The notes: generated from the sequence alone by a model not told the origin. Counted from the stretch's first letter, positions 9,183-62,752 are shown. The stretch: DNA of 64,000 bases from Flavobacteriales bacterium (GCA_026418175.1 JAOABX010000008.1:40111-104110); one strand, 5' to 3'. Made by a program: numbers and translations.

Positions 9183-10562
9183 TTAACACAATTGGTATTC
9201 GGGTTGCCTGAGTAATTGCAACACAAAATGGAAAATAAGTTCTTCCCTGTATTCTGTTGTTTTTATTTCTAAAGCTTCAGCCAAATTATTACGAGGTTGA
9301 ATGAAGTAGTTAGTTAGCATTTTCTTGATTTGATCTTCGGGAACTGAGGCCATCATGGCAAAAAGATATTTCATATCAGTTTTTGCTTCAAACTGACGAA
9401 AGCGGTTTCCCAGACGCTGGGTTTCTGCCTGGTCTTTGTCTTGTATTTCTATATTTGAATTTAGCAGAATAGCATCTCCTAGTTTAAGTCGAAAGAGTAG
9501 GGTGGAGGTGTCAATCCAGGGCTTACCATCTTTCCATCCTGCTACGTTGGGTGGGTGCCCCAAAACCTGCCCCAAAATTCGTTGCGCAAACAACATGGCC
9601 TTATCATCTTTGAATTCGATTCCGAAAGCTCTTCGAATTCCGCAAATCAATTCCAACGGAGATTTAATTTTGGTCCCTATATTTTCTTCCTCATAAAACC
9701 ATTCAGATTCTATTACTTCGCGTATCAAACGACTGATATCATAACCGCTGTTATAAAATACTTCAGCTAGTGTTTCGATTTTTTTCTCATCCGGATGCTC
9801 ATTTATAAAATATAAGTAAAATTTTCGGGTGATGAATGTGGCGGTACGTCGGTCATTGAGAAGTATATTGATAATATCTTCTCCGGTAAAATTTCCTGTT
9901 TTCCCAAGAAATTGCTTTTCTCCGAAGTCGTGATCCTTTTCATCTACATAAAAATTTCCTTCTTCATCATACCTCCAACCGGTAAACGCCCGTGCTGCTT
10001 CTTTAATATCTTGTTCAGTATAATTTCCTCTTCCCAGGGTATATAATTCCAATAATTCCCGGGCAAAATTTTCATTGGGATGATCCTTCTTGTTATTTAC
10101 ATTGCTTAAAAATTCAAGCATGGCCGGGTCTTTTGCGATGGCATGCAAAAGTTCTTTATAATTACCCAATGCCATTTTTCTGAGTTTGTTAATATGTAAT
10201 TGCATGGCATACGCATAAGGCACAAAACATGCAAAATGATCGTGCCAGAAAAGTGCCATTTTTTCTCGCAATTGCTCTTTGCTGAATGTAAGTATATTTA
10301 CCCAGGCAATATTCAAATCCATCAGCTCTTCCAGATTGATTTTTCTGAATGCTATTCGCTGAGCTTTGCTGAGCCGGCCTTTTTTCCTCCATAATGAAGC
10401 CTTTGGTTTACTCGCAATATCCAGAGGTTCAAAGGAGTAAGAACGATGAAATATTTCTGTTATTAGTTCCTTTTTATTTAGTTTTTCAAGCCTTGGAAAC
10501 TCACTAATATCGGGGCCGAACCCAAAGCGCCAGCTAACATGTGCGATATGCCGAATATCCAT
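9183..10562 (-). CDS. DUF1800 family protein
   Basis: RFGFG, QLREKMALFWHDHF, PNENFARELLELYTLG, AARAFTGW, PPNVAGW, PEYQLC. Confidence 0.9.
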   Translation of the reverse strand: MDIRHIAHVSWRFGFGPDISEFPRLEKLNKKELITEIFHRSYSFEPLDIASKPKASLWRKKGRLSKAQRIAFRKINLEELMDLNIAWVNILTFSKEQLREKMALFWHDHFACFVPYAYAMQLHINKLRKMALGNYKELLHAIAKDPAMLEFLSNVNNKKDHPNENFARELLELYTLGRGNYTEQDIKEAARAFTGWRYDEEGNFYVDEKDHDFGEKQFLGKTGNFTGEDIINILLNDRRTATFITRKFYLYFINEHPDEKKIETLAEVFYNSGYDISRLIREVIESEWFYEEENIGTKIKSPLELICGIRRAFGIEFKDDKAMLFAQRILGQVLGHPPNVAGWKDGKPWIDTSTLLFRLKLGDAILLNSNIEIQDKDQAETQRLGNRFRQFEAKTDMKYLFAMMASVPEDQIKKMLTNYFIQPRNNLAEALEIKTTEYREELIFHFVLQLLRQPEYQLC

Positions 10563-25000: not shown

Positions 25001-25064
25001 CAATAATCATTGCAAAAATGATACATTCGTTTTAAGTATTCAAATGTTAAGTATATTAATTATT

Positions 25065-26336
25065 ATGAACACAGAAACCCTGTATGAGGTTTATAAAAAA
25101 CATCCGATGGTATGTACAGATAGCCGATCTATTCAAGCAGGATGTATATTTTTTGCCCTGAAAGGAGAACGTTTTAATGGAAATACATTTGCAGCCCAAG
25201 CACTTAATGAGGGTGCTTCCTTTGCTGTGATTGATGAACCCGAATGTAAGGTAGATGAAAGAACTATTTTGGTACCAGATGCCCTCAAAGCCTTGCAACA
25301 ACTGGCTTATTATCATCGAATGCAGTTTAATATACCGTTTATTGCTGTATGTGGTTCGAATGGTAAAACTACATCAAAAGAATTAATGCATGCAGTATTA
25401 AGTACAACCTATAAAACTATAGCTACTCCCGGTAATTTTAATAATCATATTGGTGTTCCGCTTACACTGTTAAGTATTCCCAAAGGGACAGAAATGGCCA
25501 TTATTGAAATTGGTGCTAATCATCTGCATGAAACCTATGCCTTGTGTAAAATAGCAGCCCCTGATTTTGGGGTAGTAACAAATAATGGAAAAGATCATCT
25601 GGAAGGTTTTTGCAGCATCGAAGGAGTAAGAAAAGCTAATGCGGAATTGTATCAATACTTATATGAAATCGGAGGTACAGCTTTTGTTAATGCAAGCCTG
25701 GCTGATTTAATGGAAGACTCTGCTTCGCTTAAACGCATCATTTATGGAGATGACCCCAAGGCTGATTTTATTTGCCATAGTTATCCGCATGGTATTTTTG
25801 CAGGACTTCAATTTCCTGATGGGAAAGTGGCAATCTCCCGGCTGGCAGGAACATTTAATTGGATAAATATGGCTTTGGCTGCAGCCGTGGGGCATTATTT
25901 TCAAGTAAGCCAGGAAAACATTATTCAGGCGCTCGAAACATATCAACCTCGATTAAACCGTTCACAAATGCTTAATTACCGAGGGGCTACTATCATCATG
26001 GATGCATACAATGCCAACCCCAGCAGTATGGAGCTGGCATTGCGTAGTTTTATGCAAATACCGGGTAAAAAATGTGTAATATTGGGCGACATGCTTGAAT
26101 TGGGAGAACATGCAGCTGCAGAACACTGGGCGATCGTGCAGTTAGTGAAACAATTATCGCCCGATGAAGTGGTGTTGGTGGGCACGGAATTTGGCCAATA
26201 TAAAAAGGAGATACAAGCACATTTTTTTGAAAATTCATCCGATGCGGCCGGCTGGTTTAAACATCAGGATTTTAACGGCTGGCATATTCTACTCAAAGGT
26301 AGCCGTGGATTGAAACTGGAAAAAATATTGGAGTAA
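25065..26336 (+). CDS. murF: UDP-N-acetylmuramoyl-tripeptide--D-alanyl-D-alanine ligase
   Basis: TDSR, GSNGKTTSKE, GNFNNHIGVPLTL, DAYNANPSSM, LGDMLELG, LLKGSRG. Confidence 0.96.
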   Translation: MNTETLYEVYKKHPMVCTDSRSIQAGCIFFALKGERFNGNTFAAQALNEGASFAVIDEPECKVDERTILVPDALKALQQLAYYHRMQFNIPFIAVCGSNGKTTSKELMHAVLSTTYKTIATPGNFNNHIGVPLTLLSIPKGTEMAIIEIGANHLHETYALCKIAAPDFGVVTNNGKDHLEGFCSIEGVRKANAELYQYLYEIGGTAFVNASLADLMEDSASLKRIIYGDDPKADFICHSYPHGIFAGLQFPDGKVAISRLAGTFNWINMALAAAVGHYFQVSQENIIQALETYQPRLNRSQMLNYRGATIIMDAYNANPSSMELALRSFMQIPGKKCVILGDMLELGEHAAAEHWAIVQLVKQLSPDEVVLVGTEFGQYKKEIQAHFFENSSDAAGWFKHQDFNGWHILLKGSRGLKLEKILE

Positions 26337-26381
26337 AAGCAATTTAATTTCAACAATTCAGAACATTGGAATATTGCAAGT

Positions 26382-26505
26382 TCAAAAAATTACAAACTCA
26401 AAAATTAAGATAAAAACCAGGATATTTTAAAACGCTTCTAATAAGGCCGATATAAAACCAATGATTCCGAAAGAATATTTTTAAAGTAAGTTGTGCAACG
26501 GTTAC
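26382..26505 (+). mobile_element. Remnant right end of an IS1182-family element
   Basis: Diverged copy of 29297-29419; both end in the identical 16-mer GTTGTGCAACGGTTAC. No transposase is attached. Confidence 0.75.
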
Positions 26506-26525
26506 GGCTTTTGGCGGTTCGTTTT

Positions 26526-27497
26526 TTATATTGTTTGTATTGACATTTCATTTAAAAATTTCTCAAAGCATTTCAATGCATATTGTTCGCCTGGCTTATT
26601 TATTTCTTCTATTAAGTTACTCCATCCTTTTTTCAAACTTGTCTTTTTGTAAAAGTCAACTATTTTTTTGCTTGCTGCATATTTCCACTCTGTTGTACTG
26701 TTAACTATCATTTCAATGAGTGTCATCCATAAAAGCCAATATTGGTCTGCCTTAAATTCTCTTATTATTCTTTTCAATACTGGGTCACTTTCTTGTCCTA
26801 AATATTTTGAATAAGATAGTAGCCCTATTCGTAAAGTCCATATATGTTGTAGAAGCACTTTTTCATTTCTTGAATTGTCTTTAACTAATTTGATTGCAAT
26901 GTCAATCAAGTTTATAAGATTATCTCTTTGGCTTCTACCATCGTCAAATGACGAAAACCATAAAACGTCTTTGTATTTATAGTTTTCTAAAAATGTAAAA
27001 GAATCATCTTGATACAAACCATATCTAATGTTTCTATTCCAATCAAGTTGCATTTGTTCTTGTTGTTCATTTTTTACGGCAACAAGGAGTCGGCTTCCTT
27101 TTATTTGAGTTTCCAATTTTGCTGAATGGACTAATGCTTGGCTAACAATAAAGTCCTTCGTAAGATTAGGGGCTGTTTGTCTTTCTTCAACATTTACAAT
27201 TCCTACACTCATTGCTCCACGAGGCAACAGAAAAAATTTAGATAACTCAGAATAAGAGTCATTTTTTAACAAGCACTTTTGATAAATAGCTGCAAGACAA
27301 TTTATAAGGTCTTCTCTAGAGTCTGAATAAGCCAAAAGTGAATCTGAAAATAAATGTCCATTAACACTTGGCCTATCTTTTATTTCTTTAAAGGCAATAT
27401 TGTAAAAGTCATTCAAAATTACTCGGGCTTTATTTTCGTCTGTGTTTACCATTTGACTAAATCCGAGTAAGTCAATAAATGCTAAAATTTTTTCCAT
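26526..27497 (-). CDS. Cassette 3: hypothetical protein with an N-terminal class III nucleotide cyclase-like domain
   Basis: AFIDLLGFS, FSDS, LPRGAMSVG and ALVHSAKLE resemble adenylate/guanylate cyclase core motifs; the C-terminal helical region is unrecognised. Confidence 0.6.
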   Translation of the reverse strand: MEKILAFIDLLGFSQMVNTDENKARVILNDFYNIAFKEIKDRPSVNGHLFSDSLLAYSDSREDLINCLAAIYQKCLLKNDSYSELSKFFLLPRGAMSVGIVNVEERQTAPNLTKDFIVSQALVHSAKLETQIKGSRLLVAVKNEQQEQMQLDWNRNIRYGLYQDDSFTFLENYKYKDVLWFSSFDDGRSQRDNLINLIDIAIKLVKDNSRNEKVLLQHIWTLRIGLLSYSKYLGQESDPVLKRIIREFKADQYWLLWMTLIEMIVNSTTEWKYAASKKIVDFYKKTSLKKGWSNLIEEINKPGEQYALKCFEKFLNEMSIQTI

Positions 27498-27537
27498 AGC
27501 TTCATTTATGTTGGTATGTTGTTTCGTTTAAAATGAC

Positions 27538-27662
27538 CGCCTACGGTCTCGGGCTTTGCGTTCGGGCGGGCATAGAAGCACAAAGCTGTCAACCTGCACC
27601 ACACTTGAGTAGAAGCACAAATCTCCAAGTTTGCACGTCACTCCGCATGACGCCAAATCCGT
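27538..27662 (-). repeat. attC-like site, interrupted by an IS
   Basis: Imperfect inverted arms CGGGCTTTGCGT / ACGCCAAATCCG; internal direct repeat TAGAAGCACAAA (27573, 27610); degenerate core GTAGGCG on the minus strand just before the cassette-3 gene. Confidence 0.65.
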
Positions 27663-29419
27663 GTGCCCGTTGCACACCTAACGAAAAATAATAAATAACT
27701 TTTAGAAATACAATAATTAAATTGCGGAGCATGTAGATATTTTAGCGTCATGCAAGGGAGAAAAGAATTACAGCCGAAAATATTATATCAGTTCAGTTTA
27801 GAGGAGCTGGTGGCAGAAGATAATTTTTATCGGCAATTGTCCAAGGCATTGGATTTAAGTTTTCTGTATCAAGCCACGGCTAAGTACTACGGCAAAGAAG
27901 GCCACGAGAGCATCGACCCGGTGGTGTTTTTCAAGATATGCTTAGTGGGGTATTTAAATAATATCAACTCCGATCGAAAGCTTATTGCCTATTGCAGCAA
28001 TTGCTTGGATGTGCGCTGGTATTTGAAGTACGATATAGACGAGCCCTTGCCATGGCACAGTACCATTAGTCGCACCCGTCAGTTGTATGGCGAAGAAGTG
28101 TTTTTAGAGTTGTTCAGAAAGGTGTTAAAATTGTGTATCGAAAAAGGGATGGTACGAGGCAAGCGTCAGGCGATCGATAGCGCTTATATGAAAGCCAATG
28201 CCAGCATGGATAGTTTGGTAGAAAAAGAAGTGATAGAAGATGCGGAGCAATACGCTCGAGAGTTGAACGAACACAGCGAGTATAAGGTAAGCATGGAGAA
28301 GAAGAAAGAAGTAGCGCGGCACCATCAGTGGAAAGCGAAGGCCTACCAAGGGATGCCCGGGCATGTGGACAACCCCAAACAAGTAGATGAGAACGGGAAT
28401 TTGATACGACCCAAGTATTTGAGCAATCACACCCATTACAGCCCAACCGACCCCGATGCGAAGATAAGCACCAAGCCGGGCAAGGCAAGGCAGTTGAATT
28501 ATGCGGGACAAATAGCTGTAGATGACAAACACCATGTAATAACTGGAGCCTGTGCCAGTAGTGCAGGCCACCGGGATAGCCAAAACTTAGCGGAGATATT
28601 GGGTCAGACGATAGAGAACTTAAAGCAATCGCACATTCAGGTAGAAGAGATAGCCGCCGATGCGGGCTATAGCAGTGGCGAGGCACTGCTATATTGCGAA
28701 GAAAAGCAGATAGAAGCCTACATACCCAATTTTGGGCAATACAAAGCAGAGCGTGAAGGTTTTATTTACAACCAGGAAAAAGACCAATACGAATGTCAGC
28801 GAGGGAATAGAGCCCTTTTGCCGTTTAAGAGGATAGCTACAGATAGCAAGGGATACACTAAACGAATATACCGCAGCGACAACAGCAAATGCAAGGACTG
28901 CCCGTTGAGAGCGCAATGCATAGGCAAGAGCGATTTTAAGAAGATAGAAGACAGCATAGACAAGCCGTATTACGATAGGATGCATCACAAGCTACAAAGC
29001 CAAGCGAAGTATGCCCGATGGATGAGCCGAATGCGAAGCCGCACGGTAGAGCCGGTGCTGGGCACACTGTTAAATTATATGAATATGCGCAGAGTAAACA
29101 CGAGAGGAATGCAAGGAGCCAATAAACACGTGCTGTTAAGCGCCATTAGTTATAACATCAAGAAGTACCTGAAGTTTATCCACAAAAAGGCAAAAGTCAA
29201 TGCTCAGGTTATGAGGGTAGAAGCGAGCATAACGATAGAAAGAACAAAAACACTTTTTCAATGCCTAATAAGCTCATTACAGCCGATATAAGAGCATCAA
29301 AAATTACAAACCCAAAAAATTAATAGAAAAACCAGGCCTTGTTAAATGGGCTCTCATATGGCCGATTTCTTCAATAAGAATCAATTCAAATGTTTTTTAG
29401 AGGGTTGTGCAACGGTTAC
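27663..29419 (+). mobile_element. IS1182-family insertion sequence
   Basis: Terminal inverted repeats GTGCCCGTTGCACA / TGTGCAACGGTTAC (10-bp perfect core CCGTTGCACA) around a transposase; higher GC than the flanks. Exact outer ends are inferred. Confidence 0.85.
27750..29291 (+). CDS. IS1182-family DDE transposase
   Basis: N-terminal DUF772-like region (SIDPVVFFK, PWHSTISRTR), AIDSA, TDPDA, ADAGYS, CxxCPLRxxC, RSRTVEPVLG. Confidence 0.92.
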   Translation: MQGRKELQPKILYQFSLEELVAEDNFYRQLSKALDLSFLYQATAKYYGKEGHESIDPVVFFKICLVGYLNNINSDRKLIAYCSNCLDVRWYLKYDIDEPLPWHSTISRTRQLYGEEVFLELFRKVLKLCIEKGMVRGKRQAIDSAYMKANASMDSLVEKEVIEDAEQYARELNEHSEYKVSMEKKKEVARHHQWKAKAYQGMPGHVDNPKQVDENGNLIRPKYLSNHTHYSPTDPDAKISTKPGKARQLNYAGQIAVDDKHHVITGACASSAGHRDSQNLAEILGQTIENLKQSHIQVEEIAADAGYSSGEALLYCEEKQIEAYIPNFGQYKAEREGFIYNQEKDQYECQRGNRALLPFKRIATDSKGYTKRIYRSDNSKCKDCPLRAQCIGKSDFKKIEDSIDKPYYDRMHHKLQSQAKYARWMSRMRSRTVEPVLGTLLNYMNMRRVNTRGMQGANKHVLLSAISYNIKKYLKFIHKKAKVNAQVMRVEASITIERTKTLFQCLISSLQPI

Positions 29420-29424
29420 TGCTG

Positions 29425-29577
29425 TTATGCACAGGGCTTTATTGTCATCTGTGTTTTGCGTTTTTTAAAGTATTCTAAAATTTCTTCTTTAGTCATTTTA
29501 GATAACTTCTCGCTCAATTTGTCTCGCTGTTGACGCATGAATTTAACAGCGTCAAATGTTTTTTCAGTCGTCTTCAT
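29425..29577 (-). CDS. Cassette 2: 50-aa protein, putative antitoxin partner of the PIN protein
   Basis: Hand-translated MKTTEKTFDAVKFMRQQRDKLSEKLSKMTKEEILEYFKKRKTQMTIKPCA*. Overlaps the PIN gene 3' end; its TAA lies in the inverse core GCATAAC. Too short for the ORF track. Confidence 0.7.
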   Translation of the reverse strand: MKTTEKTFDAVKFMRQQRDKLSEKLSKMTKEEILEYFKKRKTQMTIKPCA

Positions 29578-30028
29578 ATTTTTTAAATTCTCTTGGTGAA
29601 CGTATTTCTAATTGCTTGTAACCCTTTTTAATGTTGATAGAATTGTAACCCCTAATTCTTTCAATGTTAACTATGTGCTTGAAGTTCCAACTAACTAAAA
29701 AGTCTGCATGATTTATTGTTGCTAATGCTATGTGCAAGCAGTCAGCAAAACTTGTTTGCCCAACAACTTTCTCAGTAATATATTCAGTTGCCAAGTCAAC
29801 CGCTTCATCAGTTATTTCTATGAACTCTGTTTGGTCAGCTCTAAGGCTTTTTACAAGTTCTTTTACTTTTTCGGGTGCGTTTTCAAGTTCGTCCTGCGTA
29901 ACTGTCGAGTAGAGAATTATAAATTCACCTGCTTTAATCCTATCAAACAACGGAACAGTATGTTCTTTGAACTCTTCGTCAAAGTGTCCACCGAAAACGG
30001 ATGTGTCAATATAAATTCTTTGTTTCAC
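29564..30028 (-). CDS. Cassette 2: PIN-domain (VapC-like) ribonuclease
   Basis: IYIDTSV, TQDEL, ADCLHIALA, LVSWNFKHIVN. Confidence 0.88.
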   Translation of the reverse strand: MKQRIYIDTSVFGGHFDEEFKEHTVPLFDRIKAGEFIILYSTVTQDELENAPEKVKELVKSLRADQTEFIEITDEAVDLATEYITEKVVGQTSFADCLHIALATINHADFLVSWNFKHIVNIERIRGYNSINIKKGYKQLEIRSPREFKKYEDD

Positions 30029-30056
30029 TTTTAATTTAATGTTGTATTACTGTTAT

Positions 30057-30064
30057 CAAAAATA
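30057..30064 (-). promoter_or_regulatory. Cassette-internal -7 element (TATTTTTG)
   Basis: Matches TAnnTTTG about 28 nt upstream of the PIN gene GTG start. Confidence 0.5.
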
Positions 30065-30122
30065 CGATTTTTATGAGTTCAGTCGGTCAGTTTCTTGTCT
30101 AGATGTTGTCTTTTAGCCTTGT

Positions 30123-30253
30123 GCATAACGGTTGGCGGTATGGTTAGTTGCCGATTTCGAAGCACTTTCCTATCAAGTTACAACTACTTTTGATACGAGC
30201 TGTACCGCTCGAATACCCACTGCACCGGCAATTAACTATACCGCTTGTTACCT
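30123..30253 (-). repeat. Intact attC-like recombination site
   Basis: Minus strand reads AGGTAAC ... GTTATGC; 19-nt arms at 30135-30153 and 30226-30244 with 17/19 Watson-Crick pairs; starts just after the cassette-1 stop codon. Confidence 0.8.
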
Positions 30254-30262
30254 GCTGGGCAT

Positions 30263-31057
30263 TTATTTCACTAATCTTACTGGTTTTGTTACAATTGTTT
30301 TTACTGTGTCTGGTAATATATTTTGTTCTAGAAAATCATTAGTCTTTTTATATAAAGAATCAATCGAGATTAATGACTTAGTTAAAGTCTCATATTGAGT
30401 TTTATTTATTTTAGCATCAATCGGTCTTTGTGATAAAAAAATTGAAACAGCGATACTCAATATCCCTAAAAGAATAGAAATCCCAATTGCCACAGAAGAC
30501 CTATTTACACTTTTCTTCGCTTGAACCAGCGAGTTGTTTGCAACATCTAGATTGTCTTTTGCAATTTTAATATTTTCATCATGTCTAATTTGCTCATCAG
30601 TCTTAAAATCATTTTCTACGTAATCAATAAGAATTTGTCCAACTACAATTGTTCGATATGAGTAATCAAGTAAAAAGTCAACTATTATCGGGTCTGTAAT
30701 TTGGTATGAAACTGGCGTATTTCCTTTCAATAATAGACCAAATCTTGTAGGTTGTTTGGGAACATTTCCTTGTTGATACAAATAAATGTAATCAAGTCCT
30801 TGTAGATATTTAAGTAATGTCACAAATCGCATTAATAACCATGCTTTATCAGTTACAATCGTTGTGAAATTAGTTAAATGAAGAAATTTTTGTTGATCAA
30901 ATAACAATTCAACAGTTCTATTTTGATAATCAAGCTTAACATCAATATCAAGGAGAAATCTATCAACAATGTCAGCTAAACAAACTGCCTGTCCATTTTT
31001 CCATCGAGTTACTATTTCTGAAATAATGTACTTTTCGTCGGTGTCAAATTTTTTCAT
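30263..31057 (-). CDS. Cassette 1: hypothetical protein with a coiled coil and one TM helix near the C-terminus
   Basis: 264-aa AT-rich ORF bounded by matching core sites; hydrophobic VAIGISILLGILSIAVSIFL. Confidence 0.75.
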   Translation of the reverse strand: MKKFDTDEKYIISEIVTRWKNGQAVCLADIVDRFLLDIDVKLDYQNRTVELLFDQQKFLHLTNFTTIVTDKAWLLMRFVTLLKYLQGLDYIYLYQQGNVPKQPTRFGLLLKGNTPVSYQITDPIIVDFLLDYSYRTIVVGQILIDYVENDFKTDEQIRHDENIKIAKDNLDVANNSLVQAKKSVNRSSVAIGISILLGILSIAVSIFLSQRPIDAKINKTQYETLTKSLISIDSLYKKTNDFLEQNILPDTVKTIVTKPVRLVK

Positions 31058-31086
31058 ATCGTTGGTTTTTTAGTTTTTTGCCTTGC

Positions 31087-31179
31087 AGGTAACTTACTTA
31101 TAAGTCTGAAAAAATCATCCTTTTGCATCCAATAGTGGAAAATAGGTATGATTTTATCAGGCCTGTTTTTCCAAATATA
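31087..31179 (-). promoter_or_regulatory. attI/Pc-like array leader
   Basis: TATATTTG -7 motif (31172-31179), 13-bp inverted repeat (31106-31118 / 31148-31160, 12/13), palindrome ACTTATAAGT, then core GTTACCT. Confidence 0.5.
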
Positions 31180-31404
31180 AAAATTTATTTAAACAATTTA
31201 ATCACATGATATATATGTTTTACAGCTACATAAATATTCAGTTTACCCCTAAAATTGATTTTATTCAAGCTGATAAATTCAACCCCACATATAATAATTT
31301 ATTTTTTTATTTGTCTGGCTTTCATACATGCTGTTTTTGCTGATTCGGTCTTACATCAAACAAACCCTTATCTTTGTGGTTTAATATAATTGAAAAGCGG
31401 TAGT

Positions 31405-31794
31405 ATGAAGAAATCGCACATTGTTTTATTGCTTATTATTGCCGGAGCTGTAGGCTTGGCATTTTATTCATTGCAAAGCTCCGAAACCTACGCCTCGTTT
31501 GCTGAAGCCATGAACGAGCCTGATAAAACGTTTCATGTGGTGGGTAAGCTGAATTTGGAAAAAGAAATGGTGTATAACCCAGTGGTTGATGCTAATCTTT
31601 TTACCTTTTACCTAATAGATAAAGAAGGCCAGGAAAAAAAAGTATTGCTTTATAAATCTAAACCTCAAGATTTTGAAAAGTCAGAACAGGTAGTGGTTAT
31701 TGGTAAAATGCAGGGCAATGAATTTCATGCTAAAGACGTACTCACGAAGTGTCCGTCTAAGTATTCAGACGCTCAAACTCAACAAGTAAAGTAA
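31405..31794 (+). CDS. ccmE: Cytochrome c maturation heme chaperone, CxxxY type
   Basis: N-terminal anchor, KPQDFE, VVVIG, LTKCPSKY; TATCTTTG -7 motif at 31369-31376. Confidence 0.88.
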   Translation: MKKSHIVLLLIIAGAVGLAFYSLQSSETYASFAEAMNEPDKTFHVVGKLNLEKEMVYNPVVDANLFTFYLIDKEGQEKKVLLYKSKPQDFEKSEQVVVIGKMQGNEFHAKDVLTKCPSKYSDAQTQQVK

Positions 31795-36262: not shown

Positions 36263-36410
36263 AATAAAAGAAATTTAAGTTGGTGCCTACTCTAAATATG
36301 GTTTTCGGCATCCCCATCTAAATCTAAGTTATATATTGTATTGAAATTAACAAAATGAATAATTTACCCCTAATGATTTATTATACTAATTATGTGAATA
36401 AATAACAAGA

Positions 36411-58045: not shown

Positions 58046-58120
58046 GGAGGAAGAGGGGACTCGAACCCCCGGCCTTCAGAGCCACAATCTGACGCTCTAA
58101 CCAACTGAGCTACAACCTCC
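58046..58120 (-). tRNA. tRNA-His (GTG)
   Basis: Cloverleaf with anticodon loop TT-GTG-GC, GGTTCGAG T-arm, G-1:C73; CCA not encoded; TATATTTG promoter at 58132-58139. Confidence 0.93.
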
Positions 58121-62664: not shown

Positions 62665-62752
62665 TGGCGGAGAGTGAGGGATTCGAACCCCCGGAACCTC
62701 TCGGTTCAACGGTTTTCAAGACCGCCGCAATCGACCACTCTGCCAACTCTCC
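62665..62752 (-). tRNA. tRNA-Ser (TGA)
   Basis: GGAGAGTTGGCAGAGTGG...CT-TGA-AA..., long variable arm, GGTTCGAATCC, encoded CCA; TACTTTTG promoter at 62758-62765. Confidence 0.95.

Follow-up and report, generated by a model that had tools for sequence, protein, structure and literature searches.

Between murF and ccmE, in a 64,000-nt stretch of DNA from a Flavobacteriales bacterium (GCA_026418175.1 JAOABX010000008.1:40111-104110; the whole stretch is referred to as the window, and array coordinates are counted from its start), three co-oriented minus-strand gene cassettes occupy positions 26382-31155. Each cassette opens with a GTT start box that is the inverted counterpart of the AAC box preceding its own hairpin site of ~145 nt. 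They are likely to form an array of three mobile gene cassettes that has partly decayed and has no integrase of its own, one belonging to a Bacteroidota-wide system that works like an integron. The proposed system would consist of a dedicated tyrosine recombinase, an attI-like site ~100 nt behind its gene, and cassettes that each end in an imperfect hairpin of ~145 nt. It is integron-like, separate from canonical integrons and apparently undescribed. No published description was found in the literature searched, which missed most subscription journals and supplements.

Such an array had been proposed earlier in a sequence-only reading, and its anatomy can be observed directly in the window. 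Three AT-rich units in the same orientation lie between the two flanking genes (Table 1), with the genes as described and a GC content of 0.30-0.36 in the cassettes and 0.35-0.42 in the flanks. The inverted boxes quoted for each unit are present: the sequence at 31080-31093 (minus) matches that at 30247-30260 (plus) at 12/14 positions, 30115-30129 (minus) matches 29424-29438 (plus) at 14/15, and the third pair is a degenerate, GGCGGT-containing one at 27535-27544 and 26509-26520. The hairpins begin directly after the stop codons, as claimed, and the intact one is the 145-nt site 1. In minus-strand order, site 1 comprises a 14-nt box ending in AAC, the dinucleotide AA, a 19-bp imperfect stem (30135-30153 paired with 30226-30244), a 72-nt loop, the return stem, CAACC and the GTT box of unit 2. 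By inspection, its 19-bp stem contains no bulged or extrahelical base, and its R arm is 14 bp long. When the site was folded as DNA, z was -2.4 for the minus strand and -3.2 for the plus strand. Three features had escaped the sequence-only reading: an IS1182-family element that splits site 2, the remnant of an insertion sequence (IS) end that truncates site 3, and the attI-like site at the head of the array.

The 65-nt array-head sequence recurs at 95% identity on two other contigs of the genome, at C9:2526-2590 and C17:2085-2150. When aligned, the three copies were near-identical up to ...A, had GTT in common and were unrelated past it. Divergence exactly after ...A|GTT is what a platform (attI) site would show if it had received different cassettes at GTT. 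The C9 copy immediately follows the end of a gene for a 376-aa tyrosine recombinase (C9:2628-3758), and the C17 copy retains ~75 nt of the recombinase downstream region, including the last codons of the gene. Judged by its sequence, this arrangement would place an attI site beside an integrase gene, with cassettes joined at G|TT, as in integrons. No tyrosine recombinase was found within the 64-kb window. Its array kept the attI-like site and not the recombinase gene, so that it would be served in trans from C9. The sequence-only reading had also placed the recombinase elsewhere, and a genome-wide search for similar sites and an enzyme yielded the attI copies on C9 and C17 together with the candidate recombinase on C9.

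Members of this recombinase family precede similar arrays across Bacteroidota. Our homologue set comprised 80 loci, in which full-length homologues (36-62% identity) came from Flavobacterium, Pedobacter, Chitinophaga, Crocinitomicaceae, Bacteroidales, Polaribacter and an Ignavibacteriae metagenome-assembled genome. In G015, a genome from another family, a 52%-identical recombinase is accompanied by a similar attI and four sites downstream. By eye, the same junction was recognized 80-170 nt behind the stop codon in ~35 of the 48 best homologue loci, usually as ...TATAAAC-N-A|GTT preceded by direct or inverted repeats. Hairpin sites were supplied by a stem scan downstream of the recombinase gene; 26 of them were aligned, and a covariance model, R1, was built from that alignment. 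AAC-A, C-GTT and the A at position 11 of the following box were invariant in all 26 sites, and compensatory double changes were present at all 15 predicted stem pairs. Searching both strands of the 80 loci with R1 gave 49 matches at E<=1e-3, 25 of which were outside the training set. All but one (48/49) lay behind the recombinase gene and shared its strand, the exception being locus L048, which has a divergent arrangement. In the 49 matches, 85.3% of stem cells were paired, compared with 50.6% after shuffling and 35-48% with the partner slid, in a model-fitted alignment that favours structure; double changes numbered 245 vs 89 in shuffles. Site length was mostly 144-149 nt. As in attC sites, it is the structure of these imperfect hairpins that is conserved, more than their sequence.

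R1 recovered two sites in the window, and a stub accounts for the third. Site 1, a member of the training set, scored 79 bits, and the body of site 2, which was outside that set, scored 23.7 bits (E 6e-4); the best unrelated match in 94 kb reached 12.1 bits (E 0.41). The site 2 body was placed by alignment to intact sites of the same type and holds an internal 33-nt direct repeat (27573-27605 and 27610-27642). Sites in seven further genomes of the class share 79-85% identity with its segment 27543-27664. This body is conserved unusually strongly across several families, and other site types vary freely. A minority site class, to which window cassette 3 belongs, has one extra base in the R arm, seen by eye as a one-base bulge.

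A defining property of integron cassettes, that their first bases derive from their own site, was also found here. The 14 nt opening a cassette were compared with the inverted 14 nt before the next site. Agreement was at least 11/14 in 31 of 45 consecutive pairs, with 23 pairs at 13/14 and none at 14/14. Among 1926 control pairs drawn between different loci, 23 reached at least 11/14 and 0 reached 13/14. An array adjoining a recombinase homologue in genome G032 carries 21 sites on one strand within 20 kb, and 14 of its 20 pairs agreed at 13/14 and 16 of 20 at 12/14 or better. By eye, the sole mismatch in all 37 pairs at 13/14 was at position 11, where the opening box has A vs G. In the folded site, the coding-side strand has an A-C clash at this position and its complement a G-T pair; no other consistent strand asymmetry was found.

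One of the window cassettes was encountered in another array context, which is the most direct indication that cassettes move. Reads from four metagenome runs were used, all as contigs. In X2, a groundwater run from another study, a 12.6-kb contig contains a copy of cassette 3 that has 15 differences over 1038 nt (98.6% identity). There, cassette 3 is joined at 27541 to a body like that of site 1 (30127-30249), the junction reading GTT and then the cassette, and the contig departs from the window a second time directly past the GTT of 30247-30249. In the sediment run X5, cassette 3 is represented by near-identical pieces that likewise cease to match at 27541. An apparent joint leading back from 29296 to 26382 was considered as a circle and rejected, as it reflects the repeated IS end instead. 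Two joints in run X1 (27581 to 29425 and 27704 to 29463), with short sides and unknown letters between them, were left uninterpreted.

These observations bear on a different explanation, in which the hairpins would be intergenic repeats, terminators or structured RNAs among accessory genes that are not mobile, and their linkage to the recombinase would be incidental. Hairpins that begin right after stop codons could terminate transcription, repeats of the site-2 type are very abundant in the four metagenomes (depth 124-1466 in bin 27518-27691), and covariation alone fits RNA equally with DNA. We nevertheless regard it as very unlikely. It leaves unexplained that each start box is an inverted copy of its own end box, that conservation ends at ...A|GTT in the three attI copies, that 48 of the 49 R1 matches are downstream of the recombinase on its strand, and that cassette 3 occurs in another array with the breakpoint at GTT; nor did any Rfam family match the sites. 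Kinship of the sites with the Flavo-1 RNA motif, suggested in the sequence-only reading, was given up: the window yielded no Flavo-1 (RF01705) match above the gathering score, 26000-31600 gave none even at E<=10, and other Rfam families likewise had no match at the sites. A Flavo-1 match (46.4 bits; gathering score, 42) was noted in two Flavobacterium loci, L016 and L019, at 9820-9900 (minus), on the strand opposite to the recombinase gene and ~90 nt upstream of it. It was the sole one, with none on the array sites of L016 (checked at E<=1) or L019 (gathering score only).

The C9 enzyme is one of three tyrosine recombinases in the genome, the two others (301 and 297 aa) being of Xer size. It scored 229.6 bits against NF040815 (XerA; cut-off, 220), whose product name is "site-specific tyrosine recombinase/integron integrase." Against TIGR02249 (IntI), it scored 217.8 bits (cut-off, 265) with a match in two pieces, and although this was the best score in the genome, no protein reached the cut-off. 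Comparison with the Vibrio integrase VchIntIA (2a3v) placed 22 query residues (277-298) opposite 64 residues of the chain (179-242), so that ~42 residues are missing, whereas the alignment to XerA structures was continuous from end to end. The enzyme therefore lacks the IntI-specific insertion in the catalytic domain. Its catalytic residues are conserved across 26 homologues. An AlphaFold model (mean pLDDT, 85) was most similar to XerA and IntI4.

The recombinase carries an extra N-terminal domain of ~100 aa, of which residues 1-72 were confidently predicted with the topology beta-beta-alpha-beta-beta-alpha-beta. For this domain, no Pfam family scored above its cut-off and Foldseek gave no match at E<=0.001. 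The best VIA-align neighbours were the N-terminal domain of archaeal XPB (Z 7.7, with an rmsd of 1.6 across 57 residues) and the N terminus of T4 UvsW (Z 6.7); both values are under the VIA-align caution line of 8 and are only a lead. The N-terminal domains of XPB and T4 UvsW, the neighbours below that line, are DNA-binding. The recombinase family is very large, with at least 7776 clusters at E<=1e-40 among 8000 scored, and its members are named XerD or "tyrosine recombinase/integron integrase" in the source. A sub-lineage (L103, i.e., G064:C33:374000-390000; G084:C14; G088:C44; L048) has a recombinase of ~280 aa that lacks the N-terminal domain; its gene and arrays are divergently oriented, as they are in classical integrons. 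Family f40 likewise combines an enzyme of ~280 aa with arrays divergent from the recombinase gene.

The distribution of the system was evaluated in two surveys. R1 was applied to 151 sampled Bacteroidota genomes (E<=1e-6; up to 20 candidates scored per genome) and detected sites in 81 of them, representing 50 of 89 genera. The recombinase query matched 129 of 401 genomes at E<=1e-60, a threshold that also admits ~280-aa proteins lacking the N-terminal domain; 28 genomes exceeded 300 bits. In a hand tally, sites were present in 40 of 49 genomes with a recombinase match vs 40 of 101 without one, related genomes not being independent. IntegronFinder surveys report almost no integrons in Bacteroidetes. 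What integron surveys mention for this group was at first confined to In0 elements, to which one complete integron, that of Salinibacter ruber, was added later. A review names Bacteroidota among the phyla with integrons without giving detail.

Many traits of the system are those of integrons, sedentary chromosomal ones included. The tyrosine recombinase gene adjoins the platform site, and the cassettes are co-oriented, mostly promoter-less and terminated by an imperfect palindrome that has AAC...GTT cores. With the crossover at GTT, the first bases of a cassette pair with the start of its own site, and site types are conserved within arrays that carry toxin-antitoxin and anti-phage cargo. A canonical CALIN (cluster of attC sites lacking integron-integrases), that is, a remnant of a classical integron with cassettes moved by a true IntI, would also have AAC...GTT cores, obey the cassette rule and carry toxin-antitoxin and defence genes. 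Such an origin is scarcely credible when the genome encodes just three tyrosine recombinases, of which the one scoring best for IntI is below the cut-off, matches in two pieces and misses ~42 residues of the insertion. Moreover, the sites have a length of ~145 nt and an R arm of 14 bp, compared with an R box of 7 bp in canonical attC, which also has extrahelical bases in its L box; none were seen in the 19-bp stem of site 1. The sites also occur in more than half of the genomes sampled from a group in which the surveys find almost no integrons.

Since the recombinase lacks the IntI insertion and site geometry differs, the system is not a canonical integron. Unlike in integrons, the recombinase has the additional ~100-aa N-terminal domain, its gene is co-oriented with the cassettes in this lineage (it is divergent in the ~280-aa sub-lineage), and the 14-bp R arm bears an invariant position-11 mismatch in sites of mostly 144-149 nt. 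The core of the sequence-only reading, an integron-like array that lacks its own integrase and is served in trans, is supported, and its assignment to CALINs needs changing. The window array works like a CALIN in that it has cassette sites, no recombinase within 64 kb and a presumed dependence on an enzyme encoded elsewhere. In contrast to a CALIN, it keeps an attI-like site, and the enzyme acting in trans would not be IntI. The definition of a CALIN as at least two cassette sites with no integrase nearby applies by analogy only, as the sites are not canonical attC.

An Xer-style duplex mechanism is a live rival for the way in which strands are exchanged. Here, double-stranded or cruciform sites would be recombined in the manner of Xer/dif, possibly with help from housekeeping Xer proteins, and the cassettes would be akin to dif modules or IMEX. 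Xer-dependent modules, which include IMEX and Acinetobacter dif modules, are likewise discrete gene modules bounded by recombinase sites; dif modules have 28-bp sites in alternating orientation. XerA is the closest family to the C9 recombinase in both sequence, where it passes the cut-off, and structure, where it aligns from end to end. The enzyme also lacks the IntI insertion that reads extrahelical bases in folded attC, stem stability shows no strand bias, and the genome has two more recombinases of Xer size. Several properties of the sites are difficult to reconcile with this mechanism. Their inverted boxes are ~120 nt apart and meet only if the site folds, and the invariant position-11 mismatch differs between the strands, one having a G-T pair and the other an A-C clash. 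The sites are hairpins of ~145 nt, all in one orientation, instead of 28-bp duplexes. In addition, unlike in the Xer/dif systems, including those with a single recombinase (XerA, XerH, XerS), a dedicated attI is located behind a dedicated recombinase gene, arrays can exceed 20 units in a single orientation, and two other Xer-size recombinases are present in the genome. Taken together, we consider Xer/dif-type recombination unlikely.

For an integron-like system, we propose the following course of events. A free cassette would be a circle, and its site would fold, as a single strand or a cruciform, into two duplex arms parted by a short unpaired spacer. The R arm would comprise 14 bp with the invariant position-11 mismatch and the L arm ~20 bp. 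Strand exchange by the recombinase would take place at the invariant GTT/AAC triplet or beside it, with attI or a further cassette site as partner, and cassettes would be inserted, excised or reordered as an outcome. Catalysis in the window array would presumably be provided in trans by the C9-encoded recombinase, and the array may be active at present.

It should be noted that several observations weigh against this reading. Just one of the three window sites is intact. The recombinase lacks an insertion that is called essential for integron function in the literature, and among NCBIfam models it matches a Xer family best, so that its sequence is also compatible with a housekeeping role. The training sites of R1 were chosen by our own stem scan downstream of the recombinase, and the alignment of matches (A2) was fitted to the model. 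Among 20 loci (from L007-L054) with at least 4 kb of downstream sequence, 12 had co-oriented R1 matches, one had a divergent match only and seven had none. The box rule failed in 14 of 45 consecutive pairs; most of these span long intervals, in which a site was probably missed. Sites are nonetheless carried by the 40 of 101 genomes without a strong recombinase match. No clear strand bias was seen in stem folding energy (the bottom strand was stabler in 30 of 55 sites, P = 0.06), so that single-strand use and strand choice rest on the position-11 asymmetry. Finally, neither a circle nor an empty site was seen in the four metagenome runs, in which contigs cannot show rare forms.

On balance, we lean somewhat towards a wider interpretation, according to which Bacteroidota own an unrecognized integron lineage. 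Its recombinase would descend from the Xer/IntI stem without the IntI insertion and with a new N-terminal domain, perhaps reading distorted DNA, and its ~145-nt sites, unreported by current surveys, would be present in about half of the genomes of the phylum. The lineage would store defence systems and toxin-antitoxin pairs, swap cassettes between habitats and have its own site-specific IS parasite.

The features of the window array and the IS1182-family copies elsewhere in the genome are listed in Table 1.

Table 1. Features of the cassette array in the window, with IS1182-family copies found on other contigs
Feature	Coordinates	Strand	Description
murF	25044-26336	+	One flank of the array
IS1182-family right-end remnant	26382-26506	+	125 nt; abuts the AAC-box stub of site 3; remainder of site 3 gone
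Cassette 3	26507-27544	-	323-aa ORF at 26526-27497; degenerate core triplets (GTA start, AAA end)
attC-like site 2, body (stem, loop, stem, spacer)	27531-27671	-	Ends in GTA rather than GTT
IS1182-family insertion sequence	~27667-29415	+	~1.75 kb; transposase at 27750-29291; ends uncertain by ~4 nt
Cassette 2	29416-30129	-	PIN protein at 29564-30028 and overlapping 50-aa partner at 29425-29577; AAC box and spacer stub at 29416-29438
attC-like site 1 (intact)	30116-30260	-	145 nt; supported by stem and covariance model
Cassette 1	30130-31093	-	Start box at 31080-31093; 264-aa ORF at 30263-31057; own hairpin site
attI-like platform site	31094-31155	-	Two direct 9-11-nt repeats, the second abutting the crossover ...A|GTT at 31093/31094
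ccmE	31390-31794	+	Other flank of the array
IS1182-family copies or derivatives	C9:1-480; C6:54850-55030; C6:58260-58795; C80:106097-106233		C6:58260-58795 is MITE-like (miniature inverted-repeat transposable element)

Cassette 1 looks mobilisable, and cassette 3 is probably fixed because its core triplets are mutated and its site is truncated. The open reading frames (ORFs) of these two cassettes, encoding 264 and 323 aa, respectively, had no match to Pfam, NCBIfam or PADLOC families. The PIN-domain protein of cassette 2 (Pfam PIN, 30.8 bits; cut-off, 23.6) and its overlapping 50-aa partner likely form a toxin-antitoxin pair. The recombinase-proximal cassette on C9 (C9:509-2498, L088) is a complete two-gene DS32 anti-phage system, composed of a PRTase-like and a NADAR protein (NF053875, 288 bits vs 250; NF053876, 274 bits vs 240). 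The first cassette on C17 encodes a TauE-family exporter.

The element that splits site 2 was assigned to the IS1182 family by its transposase (NF033551, 331.3 bits; cut-off, 270), and its terminal inverted repeat (I11) pairs 27667-27688 with 29394-29415. Comparison with intact sites of the same type shows that it separates the AAC box of site 2 from the stem, with the ends and any target duplication resolved no better than ~4 nt. The remnant at site 3 is 73-79% identical to 29297-29426 and 88-93% identical to IS ends on contigs C6 and C80. Six IS1182-family ends were examined in the genome, two each in the window and on C6 and one each on C9 and C80. Every one of them adjoins the AAC box of a site at 4-8 nt, always in one orientation. 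The element appears to be specific for cassette sites, which it enters at a point separating the AAC box from the stem. IS1111-attC elements are known to target integron attC sites. Group IIC-attC introns do so too. The likeness to both lies in the specific entry of a mobile element into cassette sites in one orientation; unlike them, the element described here has a DDE transposase of the IS1182 family and is neither an IS110-family enzyme nor an intron. A short site-like hairpin was observed at C80:106213-106357 (L090), with only 68 nt between AAC and GTT and a similar sequence at C6:58900-59040. It is followed by an "empty" unit of ~55 nt whose two boxes are direct, not inverted, copies.

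If the proposed system is real, a platform for cassette capture is common in one of the largest bacterial phyla and apparently overlooked by standard tools, and annotation of accessory regions in Bacteroidota genomes would change. It would give access to a large unexplored pool of cassettes, here including an anti-phage system and a toxin-antitoxin pair. The system would provide a natural test of which IntI features are needed for recombination of hairpin sites. It would also supply a second, independent set of paired sites and recombinases for genome engineering in Bacteroidota.

Comparison of the murF-ccmE interval across related strains, another suggestion of the sequence-only reading, was informative in part. 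In same-genus relatives, no sites were found beside either gene (0 R1 matches in five loci and none in two loci of G001), and the two genes were not found together: murF and ccmE were on different contigs in four genomes, and in G002 and G003 they were not within 9-10 kb of each other. A homologue of the PIN cassette in G013 had no site match around it. In G001, the closest relative, a GC-rich repeat of ~140 nt, unrelated to the cassette sites, is present at contig ends by murF and ccmE (L091:3470-3612 and L092:1-150). Elsewhere in the window, Rfam identified a DUF805b RNA at 36284-36318 (minus; 38.3 bits vs a gathering score of 35.6) and two tRNA genes at 58046-58119 (minus) and 62668-62752 (minus).

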